Translations under genes and position numbers: made by a program
The notes under the pieces: model-generated
Database searches by the model: none
Seen by the model: the letters and a program-made list of their open reading frames with translations, nothing else
Told to the model about the DNA's origin: nothing
Shown: piece after piece, positions 15,828 to 56,769 of the stretch
Position numbering within the stretch: the first letter of the stretch is position 1
How the letters are laid out: each line of letters starts with the position of its first letter
Assembly (NCBI RefSeq): GCF_058153355.1
Contig: NZ_CM177019.1
DNA: 64,000 nucleotides
Reading direction: 5' to 3' (one strand)

Positions 15828-15904
15828 GGCTACGTAGCTCAGTTGGTTAGAGCACATCACTCATAATGATGGGGTCACAGGTTCGAATCCCGTCGTAGCC
15901 ACCA
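15828..15904 (+). tRNA. metT: tRNA-Met (elongator, anticodon CAU)
   Basis: GGCTACGTAGCTCAGTTGGTTAGAGCACATCACTCATAATGATGGGG...GTAGCCACCA; CAT in anticodon loop, CCA end. Confidence 0.95.
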
Positions 15905-15912
15905 TCTTTTTT

Positions 15913-15997
15913 GCGGGAGTGGCGAAATTGGTAGACGCACCAGATTTAGGTTCTGGCGCCGCAAGGTGTGCGAGTTCAAGTCTCGCCTCCCGCACCA
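15913..15997 (+). tRNA. leuW: tRNA-Leu (anticodon UAG)
   Basis: GCGGGAGTGGCGAAATTGGTAGACGCACCAGATTTAGGTTCTGG...CCCGCACCA; long variable arm. Confidence 0.95.
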
Positions 15998-16020
15998 TTC
16001 ACCAGAAAGCGTTGTACGGA

Positions 16021-16095
16021 TGGGGTATCGCCAAGCGGTAAGGCACCGGTTTTTGATACCGGCATTCCCTGGTTCGAATCCAGGTACCCCAGCCA
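16021..16095 (+). tRNA. glnU: tRNA-Gln (anticodon UUG)
   Basis: TGGGGTATCGCCAAGCGGTAAGGCACCGGTTTTTGATACCGG...CCCCAGCCA. Confidence 0.95.
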
Positions 16096-16129
16096 TCTTC
16101 TTCGAATAAGCGGTTCACCGCCCGGTTAT

Positions 16130-16204
16130 TGGGGTATCGCCAAGCGGTAAGGCACCGGTTTTTGATACCGGCATTCCCTGGTTCGAATCCAGGTACCCCA
16201 GCCA
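16130..16204 (+). tRNA. glnW: tRNA-Gln (anticodon UUG), second copy
   Basis: Identical to the preceding tRNA-Gln(UUG). Confidence 0.95.
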
Positions 16205-16219
16205 TCGAAGAAACAATCT

Positions 16220-16296
16220 GGCTACGTAGCTCAGTTGGTTAGAGCACATCACTCATAATGATGGGGTCACAGGTTCGAATCCCGTCGTAGCCACCA
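16220..16296 (+). tRNA. metU: tRNA-Met (elongator, anticodon CAU), second copy
   Basis: Identical to the copy at 15828-15904. Confidence 0.95.
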
Positions 16297-16344
16297 AATT
16301 CTGAATGTGTCGAATGCGTTCGGCAAATTCACAAACCAATTTGT

Positions 16345-16419
16345 TGGGGTATCGCCAAGCGGTAAGGCACCGGATTCTGATTCCGGCATTCCGAGGTTCG
16401 AATCCTCGTACCCCAGCCA
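16345..16419 (+). tRNA. glnV: tRNA-Gln (anticodon CUG)
   Basis: TGGGGTATCGCCAAGCGGTAAGGCACCGGATTCTGATTCCGG...; anticodon is wild-type CUG, not the CUA of supE. Confidence 0.95.
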
Positions 16420-16456
16420 ATTTATTCAAGACGCTTATATTGTAAGTGCACCCAGT

Positions 16457-16531
16457 TGGGGTATCGCCAAGCGGTAAGGCACCGGATTCTGATTCCGGCA
16501 TTCCGAGGTTCGAATCCTCGTACCCCAGCCA
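16457..16531 (+). tRNA. glnX: tRNA-Gln (anticodon CUG), second copy
   Basis: Identical to the copy at 16345-16419. Confidence 0.95.
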
Positions 16532-22079: not shown

Positions 22080-23618
22080 ATGGCTTTTGCCTCATTAATT
22101 GAACGCCAGCGCATTCGCCTGCTGCTGGCGTTATTATTCGGTGCCTGCGGAACGCTGGCCTTCTCTCCTTACGATGTCTGGCCTGCGGCGATTATTTCGC
22201 TGATGGGACTTCAGGCGCTCACCTTTAACCGCCGTCCACTCCAGTCTGCCTCTATTGGCTTTTGCTGGGGATTTGGCCTGTTTGGCAGCGGTATTAACTG
22301 GGTCTATGTCAGCATCGCGACCTTTGGCGGAATGCCTGGCCCGGTTAACATCTTCCTGGTGGTGCTGCTGGCGGCGTATTTGTCGCTGTATACCGGACTG
22401 TTTGCTGGCGTGCTGTCGCGTCTGTGGCCGAAAACCACCTGGCTGCGCGTGGCGATTGCCGCCCCTGCTCTCTGGCAAGTGACCGAGTTTCTGCGCGGTT
22501 GGGTGCTGACTGGCTTCCCGTGGTTGCAGTTCGGCTATAGCCAGATTGACGGTCCGTTAAAAGGACTGGCACCGATAATGGGCGTGGAAGCCATTAACTT
22601 CCTGCTGATGATGGTAAGCGGCCTGCTGGCACTGGCGTTGGTCAAACGCAACTGGCGTCCGCTGGTGGTGGCCGTCGTGCTGTTTGCCCTTCCCTTCCCG
22701 CTACGTTACATCCAGTGGTTTACCCCGCAACCGGAGAAAACCATTCAGGTTTCGATGGTTCAGGGCGACATTCCGCAATCGCTGAAGTGGGATGAAGGCC
22801 AGCTTCTCAATACGCTGAAGATTTACTACAACGCAACGGCACCGCTGATGGGCAAGTCATCGCTGATTATCTGGCCTGAATCGGCGATAACCGACCTGGA
22901 AATTAATCAGCAGCCGTTCCTCAAAGCACTGGACGGTGAGTTGCGTGATAAAGGTAGCTCGCTGGTCACCGGGATTGTCGACGCGCGTCTCAATAAGCAG
23001 AATCGCTACGATACCTACAACACCATCATCACGCTGGGTAAAGGTGCACCGTATAGCTACGAATCAGCCGATCGCTATAACAAAAACCATCTGGTACCGT
23101 TTGGCGAGTTTGTCCCGCTGGAGTCGATTCTGCGTCCGTTAGCACCGTTCTTTGATCTGCCGATGTCGTCATTCAGCCGTGGACCATATATCCAACCACC
23201 GCTGTCGGTAAATGGTATTGAGCTTACTGCGGCTATTTGCTACGAGATCATTCTCGGCGAGCAAGTGCGCGATAACTTCCGCCCGGATACCGACTATCTG
23301 CTGACTATCTCCAACGATGCGTGGTTTGGTAAGTCTATTGGCCCATGGCAGCACTTTCAGATGGCGCGAATGCGTGCGCTGGAGCTGGCGCGCCCGCTGC
23401 TGCGTAGCACCAACAACGGCATTACGGCGGTGATTGGCCCGCAGGGTGAGATTCAGGCGATGATCCCGCAATTCACCCGCGAGGTGTTGACCACTAATGT
23501 GACGCCGACTACCGGACTCACACCGTACGCACGTACCGGCAACTGGCCGCTGTGGGTACTGACGGCACTGTTTGGTTTTGCCGCTGTGTTGATGAGACTG
23601 CGAGCACGTCAACGTTAA
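22080..23618 (+). CDS. lnt: Apolipoprotein N-acyltransferase Lnt (512 aa)
   Basis: Polytopic N-terminal region plus nitrilase-like domain; correct length. Confidence 0.96.
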
Positions 23619-23722
23619 TGTGAATGATGCACTGGCCAGCAAAATCGCATCATTTTTGCAGGCCAGATAAACTGTTCACACCACATCCGGTATCAACAAA
23701 ACGTACTTTCTCATTGAGCTGT

Positions 23723-23750
23723 GGGGCGTGATTATCATGCCCCTTTTTTT
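23723..23750. terminator. Bidirectional terminator at the convergent 3' ends of lnt and the rhomboid gene
   Basis: GGGGCGTGATTATCATGCCCC hairpin followed by TTTTTTT; overlaps the rhomboid gene stop codon. Confidence 0.6.
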
Positions 23751-25626
23751 ACGGTTCAGGGATACAAGCCACATCGCCATATTGGGGATGCCGAATAATT
23801 GCCTGCGGATCAAGCGAGCGCGTCCTGTCCATTTGGATTAACCCGTTCTTCGCCATAACAAATATCTTTCTACCATCCGCTGAAAAACGAAGATGATTAA
23901 CGTAGCTGGCAGGATAAACGCCAATAATCTGCCCGGCATTAATATTGAGCAGGATGACATAACCTTGCAGGCCATATGACACCAACGCTAAATACTGACC
24001 GTCCGGGCTAATACCCTCAACAGAATAAACGCTCCTGCTACACCATTGCGTCATAATGCTGGCTTGTTGATCCCCTGTGCTTATACGTGAAATCCCCTGA
24101 CTATCGGCAAAAATAACCTCACCATTTTTTGGTCGGAATCCCATCGCAGAAACGACACCACGCGCATCACCTGCGGGAAAGTCTTCTTTCTGATGCGTGA
24201 TGGTATTGATCCGCACGATGTTACCTCTGCCTGCTCCTGGAACCAGTAATGTTTTTTCATCCGGGGAAAGTGCCATAACCCAGGCGCCTGGTTTACCGCT
24301 CGTCCCCGTCCCGTCGTATTTCTCCAGTGCGATATCCGCCACATGCTGATAAGTCACCAGATCAATCGCTGACACACTATTACTGGTGCGATTCATCACC
24401 CAGGCTTTTGTGCCATCACGCGAGAGGATAAGGCTGTCAGGATGGGCGCCGGTGGTAATCGACTGAATAATCTCCCCCGTCGCCACGTTAACGACCGATA
24501 ATGCATTCGCTTCAAATGAAGTCGCATACAGCAACTTTTCATCGGGGCTTAACACCAGCGATCTGACGCCCTGATCTTTACAGCCACCACAATGTTTGAC
24601 TGACTTTTCTTTCGCTATGGGCGCTGTAAAGGTATGCAGGATTTTCTTTTGTCCGAGGTCGAAAACAACAATACTGTTCGTGTTTTCAATTGCGGCATAT
24701 AACGTATTACCATCCCGATTGATCGCCATATCATGGATATCGGCAATCTCAGCGAGCAAATCACCACTGGCCTGTTCACGACTTACCGGAGCGGATAATG
24801 TTTCCCTGAGGGCATTGCGTTCCTCCGCTAACTGCTGCTTTTTATGCCGTCGCTCTTGTTCAATCTCCTGCGGATAAAACTCTTCACGCAGGCTTTGCCT
24901 GACCTGCAAAACTGATTCATCAATCTGCTGCTGCACAAGCCAGATAGCCCCGGTCAGTAGAAGACTACCCGCAACAATAATCCCACCTTCCGTAACGAGC
25001 CGGTTTTGCCCAGATAAACGCGCACTCAGCCAACCCAACGCTCCACCTGCCATCAGGCCGCCAATGTGGCAAGCGTTATCTATTCCTGCTTGCCGGGCAC
25101 CATACAACAGTGTCAGCGCCACCATACCCAACAGAGAAAATACTCGCCGCTGGTTTTTATGGTGTGTACCCGCACCTGAAGAAAGCTGTGTTGCTATCGC
25201 AGCGCCAGCTATTCCCATAATTGCCCCGGATGCCCCAACGCTGATGACTATCTGCTCACTTTCGCGTAACGCATAACAGGCGCTGATGAGCCCACCAAAG
25301 ATGCCGGAGAATAACCAGATAATCAGGAGTCGCCATTTCCCCAGTATCCGTTCCGCCACTGTCCCCACCACCAGGAGTGCAAACATATTCATCAGCAAAT
25401 GGGAAAAACTACTGTGCAGAAAAACACTGCTCAATAAGCGCCAGGGTTCACCCGACAACGTGAGAGAGGCAACGTTAGCGCCGAGATGGATGAGTGCGGA
25501 TTGATCGACTTCTTCATAACTCATCCATTGTGCGAGGTAACAAAATATCCCAACACATAGCGCAAAAAGGATCAGGGTTATTGCGGGTAATTGAACATTT
25601 AACGGCTTAACCGAAGATGCAGACAT
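23749..25626 (-). CDS. Rhomboid-family intramembrane serine protease fused to a C-terminal YVTN-type beta-propeller domain (about 625 aa)
   Basis: ATG at 25626 after AAGGAAG gives MSASSVKPLNV...; rhomboid motifs WRLLSSVFLHSSFSHLLMNM, GASGAIMG (Ser) and ACHIGGLMAG (His); 7th TM helix, coiled-coil linker, then repeated ...LYAAIENTNSIVVFDL / LYATSFEANALSVVNVATG / AWVMNRTSNSVSAIDL blades. Confidence 0.8.
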   Translation of the reverse strand: MSASSVKPLNVQLPAITLILFALCVGIFCYLAQWMSYEEVDQSALIHLGANVASLTLSGEPWRLLSSVFLHSSFSHLLMNMFALLVVGTVAERILGKWRLLIIWLFSGIFGGLISACYALRESEQIVISVGASGAIMGIAGAAIATQLSSGAGTHHKNQRRVFSLLGMVALTLLYGARQAGIDNACHIGGLMAGGALGWLSARLSGQNRLVTEGGIIVAGSLLLTGAIWLVQQQIDESVLQVRQSLREEFYPQEIEQERRHKKQQLAEERNALRETLSAPVSREQASGDLLAEIADIHDMAINRDGNTLYAAIENTNSIVVFDLGQKKILHTFTAPIAKEKSVKHCGGCKDQGVRSLVLSPDEKLLYATSFEANALSVVNVATGEIIQSITTGAHPDSLILSRDGTKAWVMNRTSNSVSAIDLVTYQHVADIALEKYDGTGTSGKPGAWVMALSPDEKTLLVPGAGRGNIVRINTITHQKEDFPAGDARGVVSAMGFRPKNGEVIFADSQGISRISTGDQQASIMTQWCSRSVYSVEGISPDGQYLALVSYGLQGYVILLNINAGQIIGVYPASYVNHLRFSADGRKIFVMAKNGLIQMDRTRSLDPQAIIRHPQYGDVACIPEP

Positions 25627-26081
25627 AAGGTGATTCTTCCTTGAAAAGACAGGTAAAAAAGCATTTTTCCCGTGTGCAGTTATCATCCCGGCAAACGTCC
25701 CATACCGAAAAGTTAACTCTGTCCGAAATATGACTTTTTCAGCCTGAAATTACAATCGTAATTAATTCACCCCTAAGTATTTTTTGGCATGTAAGTTGCT
25801 TTATTTACTGTGTAAGCAATGAAATCAGCCGCAACGCAACCGGGTTGCACCAACACAAATCAGCGGTAGCACCAAAAAGGTGCGGTTTAAGAGTTTTGCT
25901 TCGGAATGGTGCGGCGCATCTCGCAAAAACAAACAATAAAACATCAATATCTTTACATTTAACCAAACTAAATGTTACCTAACAAACACAACACTGCACA
26001 ATAAAGTTGCAGATGATAACAACACAAACACTCACAACGGGTATCCATGCGTTCTTAACGCAGAAGATAAAGGAGTTGGAT

Positions 26082-26990
26082 ATGCAATTACGTAAACCTG
26101 CCACAGCAATCCTGGCCCTGGCGCTTTCCGCAGGACTGGCACAGGCAGATGACGCCGCCCCGGCAGCAGGCAGTACGCTGGACAAAATCGCCAAAAACGG
26201 TGTGATTGTCGTCGGTCACCGTGAATCTTCAGTACCTTTCTCTTATTACGACAATCAGCAAAAAGTGGTGGGTTACTCGCAGGATTACTCCAACGCCATT
26301 GTTGAAGCAGTGAAAAAGAAACTCAACAAACCGGACTTGCAGGTGAAATTGATTCCGATCACCTCACAAAACCGTATTCCGCTGCTGCAAAACGGCACTT
26401 TCGATTTTGAATGTGGTTCTACCACCAACAACGTCGAACGCCAGAAACAGGCGGCTTTCTCCGACACTATTTTCGTGGTCGGTACGCGCCTGCTGACAAA
26501 AAAAGGCGGCGATATTAAAGATTTTGCCGATCTGAAAGACAAAGCCGTCGTAGTCACTTCCGGCACCACCTCTGAAGTTTTGCTCAACAAACTGAATGAA
26601 GAGCAAAAAATGAACATGCGCATCATCAGCGCCAAAGATCACGGTGACTCTTTCCGCACCCTGGAAAGCGGTCGTGCCGTTGCCTTTATGATGGATGACG
26701 CTCTGTTAGCCGGTGAGCGAGCGAAAGCGAAGAAACCAGACAACTGGGAAATCGTCGGCAAGCCGCAGTCTCAGGAAGCCTACGGTTGCATGTTGCGTAA
26801 AGACGATCCGCAGTTCAAAAAGCTGATGGATGACACTATCGCTCAGGTGCAGACCTCCGGTGAAGCGGAAAAATGGTTTGATAAGTGGTTCAAAAATCCA
26901 ATTCCGCCGAAAAACCTGAACATGAATTTCGAACTGTCGGACGAAATGAAAGCACTGTTCAAAGAACCGAATGACAAGGCACTGAACTAA
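26082..26990 (+). CDS. gltI: Glutamate/aspartate periplasmic binding protein GltI (302 aa)
   Basis: ATG at 26082 after AAGGAG gives MQLRKPATAILALALSAGLAQA signal peptide; correct length. Confidence 0.95.
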   Translation: MQLRKPATAILALALSAGLAQADDAAPAAGSTLDKIAKNGVIVVGHRESSVPFSYYDNQQKVVGYSQDYSNAIVEAVKKKLNKPDLQVKLIPITSQNRIPLLQNGTFDFECGSTTNNVERQKQAAFSDTIFVVGTRLLTKKGGDIKDFADLKDKAVVVTSGTTSEVLLNKLNEEQKMNMRIISAKDHGDSFRTLESGRAVAFMMDDALLAGERAKAKKPDNWEIVGKPQSQEAYGCMLRKDDPQFKKLMDDTIAQVQTSGEAEKWFDKWFKNPIPPKNLNMNFELSDEMKALFKEPNDKALN

Positions 26991-27146
26991 TTACAAGAAC
27001 CAGGGGCGGAAATTCCAGCCCTCTCGATTGTTACGTAGCACGGACAGACTATACGCCTGATGGTCGTTCCCCATCGGGCCTGAAAACCGCAATACGCTGG
27101 GTAACAATCTTCGAGGGTAGCAGTTAACGCTGCTACCCTTTTTTTT
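26991..27146 (+). ncRNA. sroC: SroC sRNA region (processed from the gltI-gltJ intergenic part of the gltIJKL mRNA)
   Basis: Location only: intergenic segment ending at the intrinsic terminator; SroC is known to derive from this position; sequence identity not verified from memory. Confidence 0.45.
27115..27146 (+). terminator. Intra-operon rho-independent terminator between gltI and gltJ
   Basis: GGGTAGCAGTTAACGCTGCTACCC hairpin followed by TTTTTTTT. Confidence 0.7.
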
Positions 27147-27159
27147 CTGGAGTAGATTT

Positions 27160-56337: not shown

Positions 56338-56367
56338 AAAAAAAACCCGCTGATTAAGCGGGTTTTG
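56338..56367. terminator. Bidirectional terminator between crcB and cspE
   Basis: AAAAAAACCCGCTGATTAAGCGGGTTTTGAATT. Confidence 0.7.
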
Positions 56368-56385
56368 AATTCTTGCTGACGTATC

Positions 56386-56595
56386 TTACAGAGCGATTAC
56401 GTTTGCAGCAGAAGGGCCTTTGGCACCGTTAGTGATTTCGAACTCTACGCGCTGACCTTCAGCAAGAGTTTTAAAACCATTAGTCTGGATTGCAGAGAAG
56501 TGTACGAACACGTCTTTGCTGCCGTCTTCCGGAGTAATGAAACCGAATCCTTTGGACTCATTAAACCACTTAACGTTACCTTTAATCTTAGACAT
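56386..56595 (-). CDS. cspE: Cold-shock-domain protein CspE (69 aa)
   Basis: [37 protein letters not shown]... (RNP1/RNP2 motifs). Confidence 0.95.
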
Positions 56596-56769
56596 CAAAA
56601 TTACCTTTACATGAAAAATAGACACAAATGCTGTGTCGGTTACCAGTACACCAATTGTGGTACGCTTTGTCCAGTGCAACTTTACTAAAAAGTGATAAAA
56701 GTCGCGTTATTTTTGATGTTAATTATTTTACTCATTGATTTTAAAGAAGTTACTAAAATTTCATTTGTC

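Follow-up and report, generated by a model that had tools for sequence, protein, structure and literature searches.

A Rhom7 rhomboid protease with a predicted periplasmic beta-propeller, encoded between lnt and gltI in Escherichia

The second rhomboid intramembrane protease found in Shigella sonnei, the product of SSON_0610 (UniProt Q3Z4D6), has seven predicted transmembrane domains (TMDs) and was named Rhom7 (Liu et al., EMBO J 2020, PMC7232013). Here we describe the Escherichia orthologue of this gene, rhom7, as it occurs in a 64,000-nucleotide stretch of contig NZ_CM177019.1 from RefSeq assembly GCF_058153355.1. The whole of this stretch is called the window. The gene occupies positions 23749..25626 on the minus strand, where 625 codons are followed by a stop codon (23749-23751), and it encodes the second rhomboid, besides GlpG, of the E. 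coli/Shigella group. A first-pass annotation of the window had taken the gene to be unrecognised. This is not the case, since Rhom7 has already been characterised experimentally in S. sonnei and RefSeq annotates the E. coli gene under the product name "rhomboid family intramembrane serine protease". The gene itself is therefore not new. The present analysis adds the fold of the C-terminal domain and its predicted periplasmic placement, a survey that divides E. coli genomes roughly 60/40 for the gene, its synteny across genera, and estimates of selection.

Rhom7 of S. sonnei cuts a reporter carrying the TatA TMD, and the mutations S133A and H187A each abolish this cleavage (PMC7232013). The seventh transmembrane helix (TM7) and the C-terminal domain are not needed for cutting the model (artificial) substrate (PMC7232013). 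When over-expressed, the enzyme cuts the transmembrane anchors of HybA and HybO, and also that of orphan FdnH, when FdnI is absent (PMC7232013). Cleavage needs a helix-destabilising proline in the TMD of the substrate, and the cut licenses further degradation of the substrate (PMC7232013). Because of this licensing, Rhom7 is understood to act on orphan subunits of respiratory complexes as a quality-control enzyme. A 2025 review in the Journal of Biological Chemistry (JBC) likewise lists Rhom7 (Q3Z4D6) with the substrates FdnH, HybA, and HybO and gives its function as "protein quality control".

Taken as a whole, the account that we consider quite probable is that the window gene encodes an orthologue of Rhom7 that serves as a quality-control protease, that its C-terminal domain is a periplasmic propeller that binds proteins, and that the gene is ancestral and has been lost in ~40% of E. 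coli.

Identity of the gene and its rhomboid core

Over 100% of its length, the window protein shares 94% identity with S. sonnei proteins. The Rhom7_Ss sequence printed in Fig EV1 of the original report consists of 625 amino acids, begins with MSASSVKPLNVQ, ends with NVACIPEP, and aligns collinearly with the window protein (PMC7232013). Likewise, the numbering of Ser133 (in GASGA) and His187 (in CHIGG) in the window protein equals the published Rhom7 numbering. An exact match to the window protein is found in a public entry (P0121) that is named both E. fergusonii and E. coli.

The open reading frame that contains rhom7 extends over 23749..25686 on the minus strand and would yield 645 amino acids from its first ATG, at 25686, or 625 from the ATG at 25626. 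The longer form was rejected because several lines of evidence favour the start at 25626. The Shine-Dalgarno-like sequence AAGGAAG precedes the second ATG, and the Prokaryotic Genome Annotation Pipeline (PGAP) of RefSeq uses the corresponding form of 1878 nucleotides in E. coli. Moreover, all orthologues and the published Rhom7 begin at the equivalent methionine. An open reading frame of 625 codons with profile scores such as those given below is far beyond chance.

The rhomboid core, TM1 to TM6, corresponds to residues 15-203 (25018..25584; this and all other features of the protein are encoded on the minus strand). It was delimited by the Pfam Rhomboid profile PF01694, which matches residues 59-201 (E=1.1e-28, 100.7 bits), by the helices of an AlphaFold2 (AF2) model, and by alignment with the GlpG proteins of E. 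coli and H. influenzae (2nr9). The expected motifs are WRLLSSVFLHSSFSHLLMNM, which holds W62/R63, H76, and N80, GASGAIMG with S133, and ACHIGGLMAG with H187. BLASTP aligns the protein with E. coli GlpG (E=6e-9) and pairs W62/R63 with W136/R137, H76 with H150, N80 with N154, S133 with S201, and H187 with H254. The GlpG query used here was verified to be identical to PDB chains over residues 87-276, and the HMMER alignment with H. influenzae GlpG gives the same pairing of residues.

The codons for the two catalytic residues, which were checked individually, are located at 25228..25230 (Ser133) and 25066..25068 (His187). The stretch from His76 to Asn80 (HLLMN) in TM2 is encoded at 25387..25401 and is by alignment the counterpart of GlpG H150/N154, two residues that form the oxyanion hole in that enzyme. 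The WR motif of the L1 loop (W62/R63), which also lies within the core, is encoded at 25438-25443. Residues W62, R63, H76, N80, G131-A-S-G134, and H187 are invariant over 18 homologues with identities down to 24%. Thus, the profile, the Ser/His dyad, the His and Asn of TM2, and the L1 WR motif, by which rhomboids are recognised (MEROPS S54 / PF01694), are all present in this protein.

Two other assignments within the rhomboid superfamily were examined with NCBIfam models that have curated cut-offs. A duplicate of GlpG was rejected, since the protein scores 41.5 bits against an equivalog cut-off of 250 (TIGR04239) and 36.7 bits against one of 335 (NF008155), which makes it a paralogue of GlpG. 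Similarly, the rhombosortase model (TIGR03902) gives 45.9 bits, below its cut-off of 84.

TM7, the charged linker, and the C-terminal propeller

The portion of the protein that follows the rhomboid core was modelled with AF2 from an alignment of 18 sequences. The model has a mean predicted local distance difference test score (pLDDT) of 81.7 and a predicted template modelling score (pTM) of 0.57. Seven membrane helices are present at residues 15-34, 62-95, 97-122, 132-149, 152-178, 184-203, and 209-232. The last of these is TM7 (24931..25002), which coincides with a hydrophobic segment at residues 210-235. The number of helices agrees with the seven TMDs that Phobius predicts for Rhom7 (PMC7232013).

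The distribution of charged residues was used to examine the orientation of these helices, with the cytoplasmic and periplasmic sides assigned by analogy with GlpG. The predicted cytoplasmic segments hold nine K or R and one D or E, and the short predicted periplasmic loops hold two K or R and seven D or E. In addition, the arginine-rich turn SARLSGQNRLV that precedes TM7 agrees with the positive-inside rule. This pattern fits a protein whose N-terminus is inside the cell and whose C-terminal domain is outside after TM7.

After TM7 comes a helical linker at residues 233-288 (24763..24930), with AF2 helices at 237-250 and 253-276. Residues 237-276 of this linker are 57% E, R, K, or Q, and it ends in the conserved sequence A286-x-G288, in which A286 and G288 are invariant in the alignment of 18 homologues. 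The model and the charge distribution predict that TM7 carries the chain over the membrane and that the charged stalk holds the domain beyond it in the periplasm.

Several methods point to a beta-propeller at residues 289-600 (23827..24762). The model for YVTN repeats, TIGR02276, reaches 53.2 bits in two stretches, above its cut-off of 27.85, and two canonical YVTN repeats can be recognised at residues 355-440. Pfam reports several weak matches to beta-propeller families (Lactonase, YNCE, and THOC3) over residues 297-609, and a phmmer search against the PDB finds 1l0q (E=1.9e-25). In the AF2 model, ~27 strands at residues 289-600 form seven blades, with block pLDDT values mostly of 80-96. When this model is compared with the PDB by Foldseek, chain 1l0q_A ranks first (E=1e-16, probability 1.00), followed by hydrazine synthase beta, G-beta, and other seven-bladed WD40 proteins. 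Accordingly, the C-terminal domain is predicted to be a seven-bladed propeller of the YVTN type.

Four cysteines of the C-terminal region are conserved among the 18 aligned homologues. Three of them are in the propeller, namely Cys346 (15/18), Cys349 (15/18), and Cys529 (16/18), and the fourth is Cys621 (11/18) in the C-terminal tail (residues 601-625, 23752..23826), where it forms part of the sequence VACIPEP. More distant homologues also have a cysteine near the C-terminus. Since oxidised periplasmic domains typically contain conserved cysteines, this pattern supports the periplasmic placement. Disulfides might be formed between C346 and C349 and between C529 and C621.

These results bear out most of what the first-pass annotation had proposed for the protein. 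The ~625-residue open reading frame that it placed between lnt and gltI on the opposite strand matches the coding sequence exactly, stop codon included. The complete rhomboid core that it described is supported by the presence of the quoted motifs and by the PF01694 match, and its catalytic Ser and His do align with GlpG S201 and H254. The seventh helix, the charged linker, and the ~300-residue YVTN-type propeller were recovered by AF2, TIGR02276, and Foldseek in agreement. The seven AF2 helices, the charge counts, and the conserved cysteines are likewise consistent with the suggested 6+1 transmembrane topology and with a periplasmic location of the propeller, which is a predicted placement.

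An exhaustive search with the C-terminal domain found, outside the orthologues, only giant proteins with multiple YVTN repeats that match two blades, and it gave no functional clue. Other proteins align with the domain over query residues ~122-250 only, and the remaining blades of Rhom7 are strongly diverged. Within the collection of literature that was searched, no paper joins a rhomboid to YVTN repeats or to a periplasmic propeller. The word "propeller" does not occur in the report on S. sonnei Rhom7 (PMC7232013) and is absent also from the 2025 JBC review. Published work thus seems not to have dealt with the C-terminal fold, which automated domain annotation would nevertheless reveal.

Distribution and history of rhom7 at the lnt-gltI locus

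The rhom7 coding sequence was compared by megablast with 5,426 complete E. coli genomes. The gene is present in 3,237 of these (59.7%) and absent from 2,189, which agrees with the earlier suggestion that it is accessory in this species. At least 80% of the coding sequence is covered in 3,232 of the 3,237 carriers, at identities of 93.4-99%, and the gene bears no pseudogene flag in the carrier annotations that were inspected. As a natural presence/absence polymorphism, rhom7 is invisible to work based on K-12, and natural knock-outs exist for comparison.

Alignment by blastn of two rhom7-negative loci (L001, from K-12 DH1, and L002) with the window defines a presence/absence segment of ~2.2 kb at 23603..25782. 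Homology between rhom7-positive and rhom7-negative sequences ends at ~23602, within the last codons of lnt, and is found again from ~25783-25837 onwards, 160-210 bp upstream of where rhom7 starts. The rhom7-negative E. coli strains K-12 and AR_0372 have ~115-170 bp of unrelated sequence in place of the segment. The end of Lnt differs between haplotypes as well (3' end of lnt, 23580-23618). It reads ...LMRLRARQR in the window, ...RARKR in rhom7-positive E. coli, and ...LMSLRQRRK in K-12 and AR_0372, which indicates that the polymorphism extends into the lnt coding sequence. The short replacement sequence downstream of lnt contains CCGGATGCGGCATCAGTGCATTATCCGG (L001, 3850-3950; L002, 3850-4000), which by its appearance may be a REP-type palindromic element.

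Derivatives of K-12 have no rhom7 and carry IS5 between lnt and gltI, as can be seen in the K-12 annotation. An IS5 copy at "gltI/lnt" is also reported for BW25113 (PMC11677980). The first-pass annotation was therefore right about the missing gene and about the position of IS5. However, IS5 is not a substitute for rhom7 in K-12, and it sits further towards gltI than the exchanged segment. Strain AR_0372 has the short intergenic haplotype without rhom7 and without IS5, and its sequence is 95% identical to K-12 on either side of the IS5 insertion point. On this ground, the idea that IS5 replaced or destroyed rhom7 was rejected. Because rhom7-negative strains that have no IS5 share the short haplotype of K-12, the element must have entered a region that was already without rhom7.

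Two unusual records were encountered in the survey. Strain BS-01 (NZ_CP172816.1) retains only the last 143 bp of rhom7, together with an lnt pseudogene that lacks its C-terminus and ~2.3 kb of unannotated DNA before gltI, and its locus represents a different and rarer rearrangement of the gltI-lnt region. A 4.83 Mb record labelled E. coli DH5alpha (NZ_CM135829.1) carries a near-full-length rhom7 at 95.2% identity. Since K-12 derivatives do not carry the gene, this suggests a mislabelled strain or assembly.

The gene is located between lnt and gltI in E. coli and, beyond this species, in E. whittamii, Escherichia sp., Klebsiella aerogenes, and another enterobacterium (L085). The entire region is collinear at about 93.5-93.8% in E. 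whittamii and Escherichia sp. MOD1-EC7003. The order gltI-rhom7-lnt is found in K. aerogenes, where the protein is 49% identical, and in the enterobacterium, where it is 53% identical and the flanks share 80-83% identity with both Escherichia and K. aerogenes. The same architecture is seen, at identities of 24-31%, in more distant homologues from Pseudoduganella and from metagenomes. The gene neighbourhoods of these homologues, in Pseudoduganella and the metagenomic contigs, revealed no partner gene that is conserved.

A wider scan of 100,044 species representatives recovered full-length rhom7 at four loci only. These are from E. whittamii, Escherichia sp. MOD1-EC7003, and two E. coli-like contigs from metagenome-assembled genomes; the other matches are mostly generic rhomboids of Bacillaceae and Bacteroidota. 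The two metagenomic contigs are labelled "Proteobacteria bacterium" (2.7 kb) and "Collinsella sp." (2.4 kb), and their rhom7 sequences are 94-95% identical to that of the window. Both probably reflect contamination, and the copy in a bin of Collinsella, a member of the Actinobacteria, is most likely due to binning contamination. With full-length copies in so few species representatives, the rhom7 family is narrow and patchy.

The simplest explanation for the synteny shared across genera is ancestral presence followed by repeated loss. Most likely, rhom7 is ancestral at the gltI-lnt locus and has been lost by deletion in ~40% of E. coli, including K-12. Alternatively, the gene may have been transferred by recombination between homologous flanks.

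Selection on rhom7 was estimated by the Nei-Gojobori method as the ratio of nonsynonymous to synonymous substitution rates (dN/dS). The window gene was compared with four Escherichia alleles (UPEC, NRZ, E. whittamii, and Escherichia sp.) and with a near-identical allele, L003. The values are 0.17-0.31 for the four alleles and 0.34 for L003. The transmembrane core and the propeller each give ~0.18 when the more diverged alleles, with the largest counts, are compared. The propeller reaches 0.90 in the comparison with L003, a value that rests on only six nonsynonymous and two synonymous changes. In the same genomes, lnt and gltI have values of 0.01-0.04. Both halves of rhom7 are thus under purifying selection, yet they are 5-10 times less constrained than the neighbouring genes. 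In the account preferred here, rhom7 is a non-essential and weakly expressed accessory gene.

The neighbours of rhom7 are on the opposite strand, with lnt at 22080-23618 (+) and gltI at 26082-26990 (+). These window flanks are 96-97% identical to K-12 and reach ~99% only with one strain labelled E. coli, 24A16CRGN010. Together with the double naming of P0121, this indicates that the window belongs to a lineage bordering on typical E. coli or lying just beyond it, whose species label may be wrong. The divergent intergenic region between rhom7 and gltI spans 25627..26081, and its rhom7-proximal part (~25627-25782) belongs to the presence/absence segment. This part also contains the in-frame ATG at 25686 that is not the annotated start. 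A consensus scan of the minus strand found no sigma-70-like site upstream of rhom7, which is consistent with the low native expression of Rhom7 reported for S. sonnei (PMC7232013). Between the convergent lnt and rhom7 genes, the same kind of scan revealed a G+C-rich hairpin followed by seven T residues (23723..23743, + strand). By pattern match, it looks like a terminator for lnt.

Three other features of the window were noted. The small RNA SroC (Rfam RF00369, 173.9 bits) is matched over its full length at 26986-27148 (+), its expected position in the gltI-gltJ spacer, ~1.4 kb from the start of rhom7. Seven tRNA genes are clustered at 15828-16528 (+), between open reading frames resembling asnB and ubiF; this cluster probably corresponds to metT-leuW-glnUW-metU-glnVX of K-12. 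Finally, a match to the cspA thermoregulator family (RF01766) at 56338-56751 (-) scores 123.8 bits against a gathering score of 78 and presumably marks the 5' region of a cold-shock gene.

Possible roles of the propeller and comparison with known systems

In the mechanism that we propose, the six-helix core, with its Ser133-His187 dyad and with H76 and N80, would cut the transmembrane anchors of substrates. TM7 would span the membrane, and a helix of ~40 residues, many of them E, R, K, or Q, would present the propeller in the periplasm. The propeller would not be part of the catalytic machinery. Rather, it may be a periplasmic protein-binding module that either selects and holds the periplasmic part of substrates, as an exosite, or binds a partner periplasmic protease, as an adaptor. 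The identified substrates of Rhom7 are described in the literature as type-I-like proteins with folded periplasmic domains of the ferredoxin type, and the nearest cores are those of GluP/TPR-type proteins. Together, these two facts suggest that the domain may bind proteins. A propeller located outside the catalytic machinery also fits with the finding that it is dispensable for cleavage of a minimal reporter (PMC7232013). If the prediction is correct, then the propeller is a concrete target for studying how a bacterial rhomboid might select substrates with folded periplasmic domains.

Several points weigh against this account. The activity of the window protein is deduced from that of an orthologue with 94% identity, and any role of the propeller is conjectural. 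With a pTM of only 0.57, the AF2 model does not fix where the propeller lies with respect to the active site. At native levels of Rhom7 in S. sonnei, cleavage of HybA and FdnH is undetectable, and a double mutant has no phenotype (PMC7232013). The physiological substrates are therefore uncertain. Moreover, the dN/dS of rhom7 is 5-10 times that of lnt and gltI, and 40% of E. coli as well as most species representatives do not have the gene, a pattern that would fit a weakly selected gene too.

How far the propeller governs the enzyme can be viewed in several ways. A bolder version of the protein-binding proposal, which we put forward only tentatively, is that the propeller acts as a true receptor and determines what Rhom7 cuts, or when, for example by recognising unassembled Tat-exported Fe-S domains or by recruiting a periplasmic protease. 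If this were true, then a defined exosite domain would be known for the first time in a bacterial rhomboid, and the silence of native Rhom7 in standard conditions would be explained. That silence could also reflect the need for an activating signal. Under this rather unlikely alternative, the propeller would act as a periplasmic sensor or gate through which a small ligand or a component of the envelope switches the rhomboid on or off, and the substrates could differ from HybA and FdnH. The propeller has local similarity to YncE and to propellers associated with pyrroloquinoline quinone (PQQ), and YVTN and YncE-type propellers often bind ligands on the top face. In the more diverged comparisons, moreover, the constraint on the Rhom7 propeller equals that on the core (dN/dS ~0.18). 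Furthermore, the nearest architectural relative, YqgP/GluP, is regulated by the binding of metal to an extramembrane domain (2025 JBC review). However, cleavage of the model substrate was neither switched on nor lost when the C-terminal domain was removed, and the authors ascribe the low native activity to low expression (PMC7232013). In addition, no ligand-binding motif was identified in the propeller, and outside the Enterobacteriaceae the gene has no conserved neighbour that would suggest a signal pathway.

The lack of phenotype in the S. sonnei mutant might instead mean that rhom7 is a decaying relic, which makes no contribution to fitness, is intact by chance in many strains, and is heading for loss. 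Such a fate would agree with the absence of the gene from 2,189 of the 5,426 E. coli genomes and, as judged by species representatives, from most Enterobacteriaceae, and also with the lack of a recognisable sigma-70-like promoter upstream and a dN/dS 5-10 times that of the neighbours. Nevertheless, we consider decay very improbable. In the more diverged comparisons, each of the two domains has a dN/dS well below 1, the coding sequence is full-length in 3,232 of 3,237 carriers, and the catalytic and structural motifs are all invariant in homologues down to about 25% identity. For these reasons the relic explanation is disfavoured. The enzymatic activity of S. sonnei Rhom7 also speaks against it (PMC7232013). 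The reading that we prefer remains that of a quality-control protease with a predicted periplasmic propeller that would bind proteins.

Among known systems, S. sonnei Rhom7 is the closest to the window protein. The two are alike in their length of 625 amino acids, their start and end, the numbering of Ser133 and His187, the seven predicted TMDs, and the large C-terminal domain, and they differ in ~6% of residues. E. coli GlpG (P09391), the prototype six-helix rhomboid, shares with the window protein the fold family, the catalytic apparatus, and the L1 WR motif, at 26% identity over 159 residues. Unlike GlpG, the window protein has no N-terminal cytoplasmic domain and adds TM7, the linker, and the predicted periplasmic propeller. 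In S. sonnei, GlpG and Rhom7 have the substrates HybA and HybO in common (PMC7232013).

AarA of Providencia stuartii, which cleaves TatA, is also a seven-helix rhomboid. It is 30% identical to Rhom7 according to the authors, and its extra helix aligns with TM7 of Rhom7 in Fig EV1 (PMC7232013). In contrast to Rhom7, AarA has 281 amino acids, ends shortly after TM7, and has no periplasmic domain. For the C-terminal domain, the archaeal S-layer protein 1l0q and E. coli YncE (3vgz) share the YVTN repeats and the seven-bladed fold. These propellers differ from Rhom7 in being soluble or surface proteins that are not fused to a protease.

The nearest cores outside the family, at 35-45% core identity, belong to sequences that are labelled GluP and/or carry TPR Pfam domains C-terminal to the rhomboid domain. 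YqgP has a 6+1 transmembrane topology with an extracytoplasmic C-terminal TPR domain. The YqgP/GluP type of Bacillus subtilis therefore has a plan in common with Rhom7, in which the core is followed by TM7 and then by an extracytoplasmic repeat scaffold, and it is reported to take part in the quality control of membrane proteins (2025 JBC review). In this type, the scaffold is built of TPRs, whereas that of Rhom7 is predicted to be a beta-propeller, and Rhom7 is without the large N-terminal cytosolic domain.

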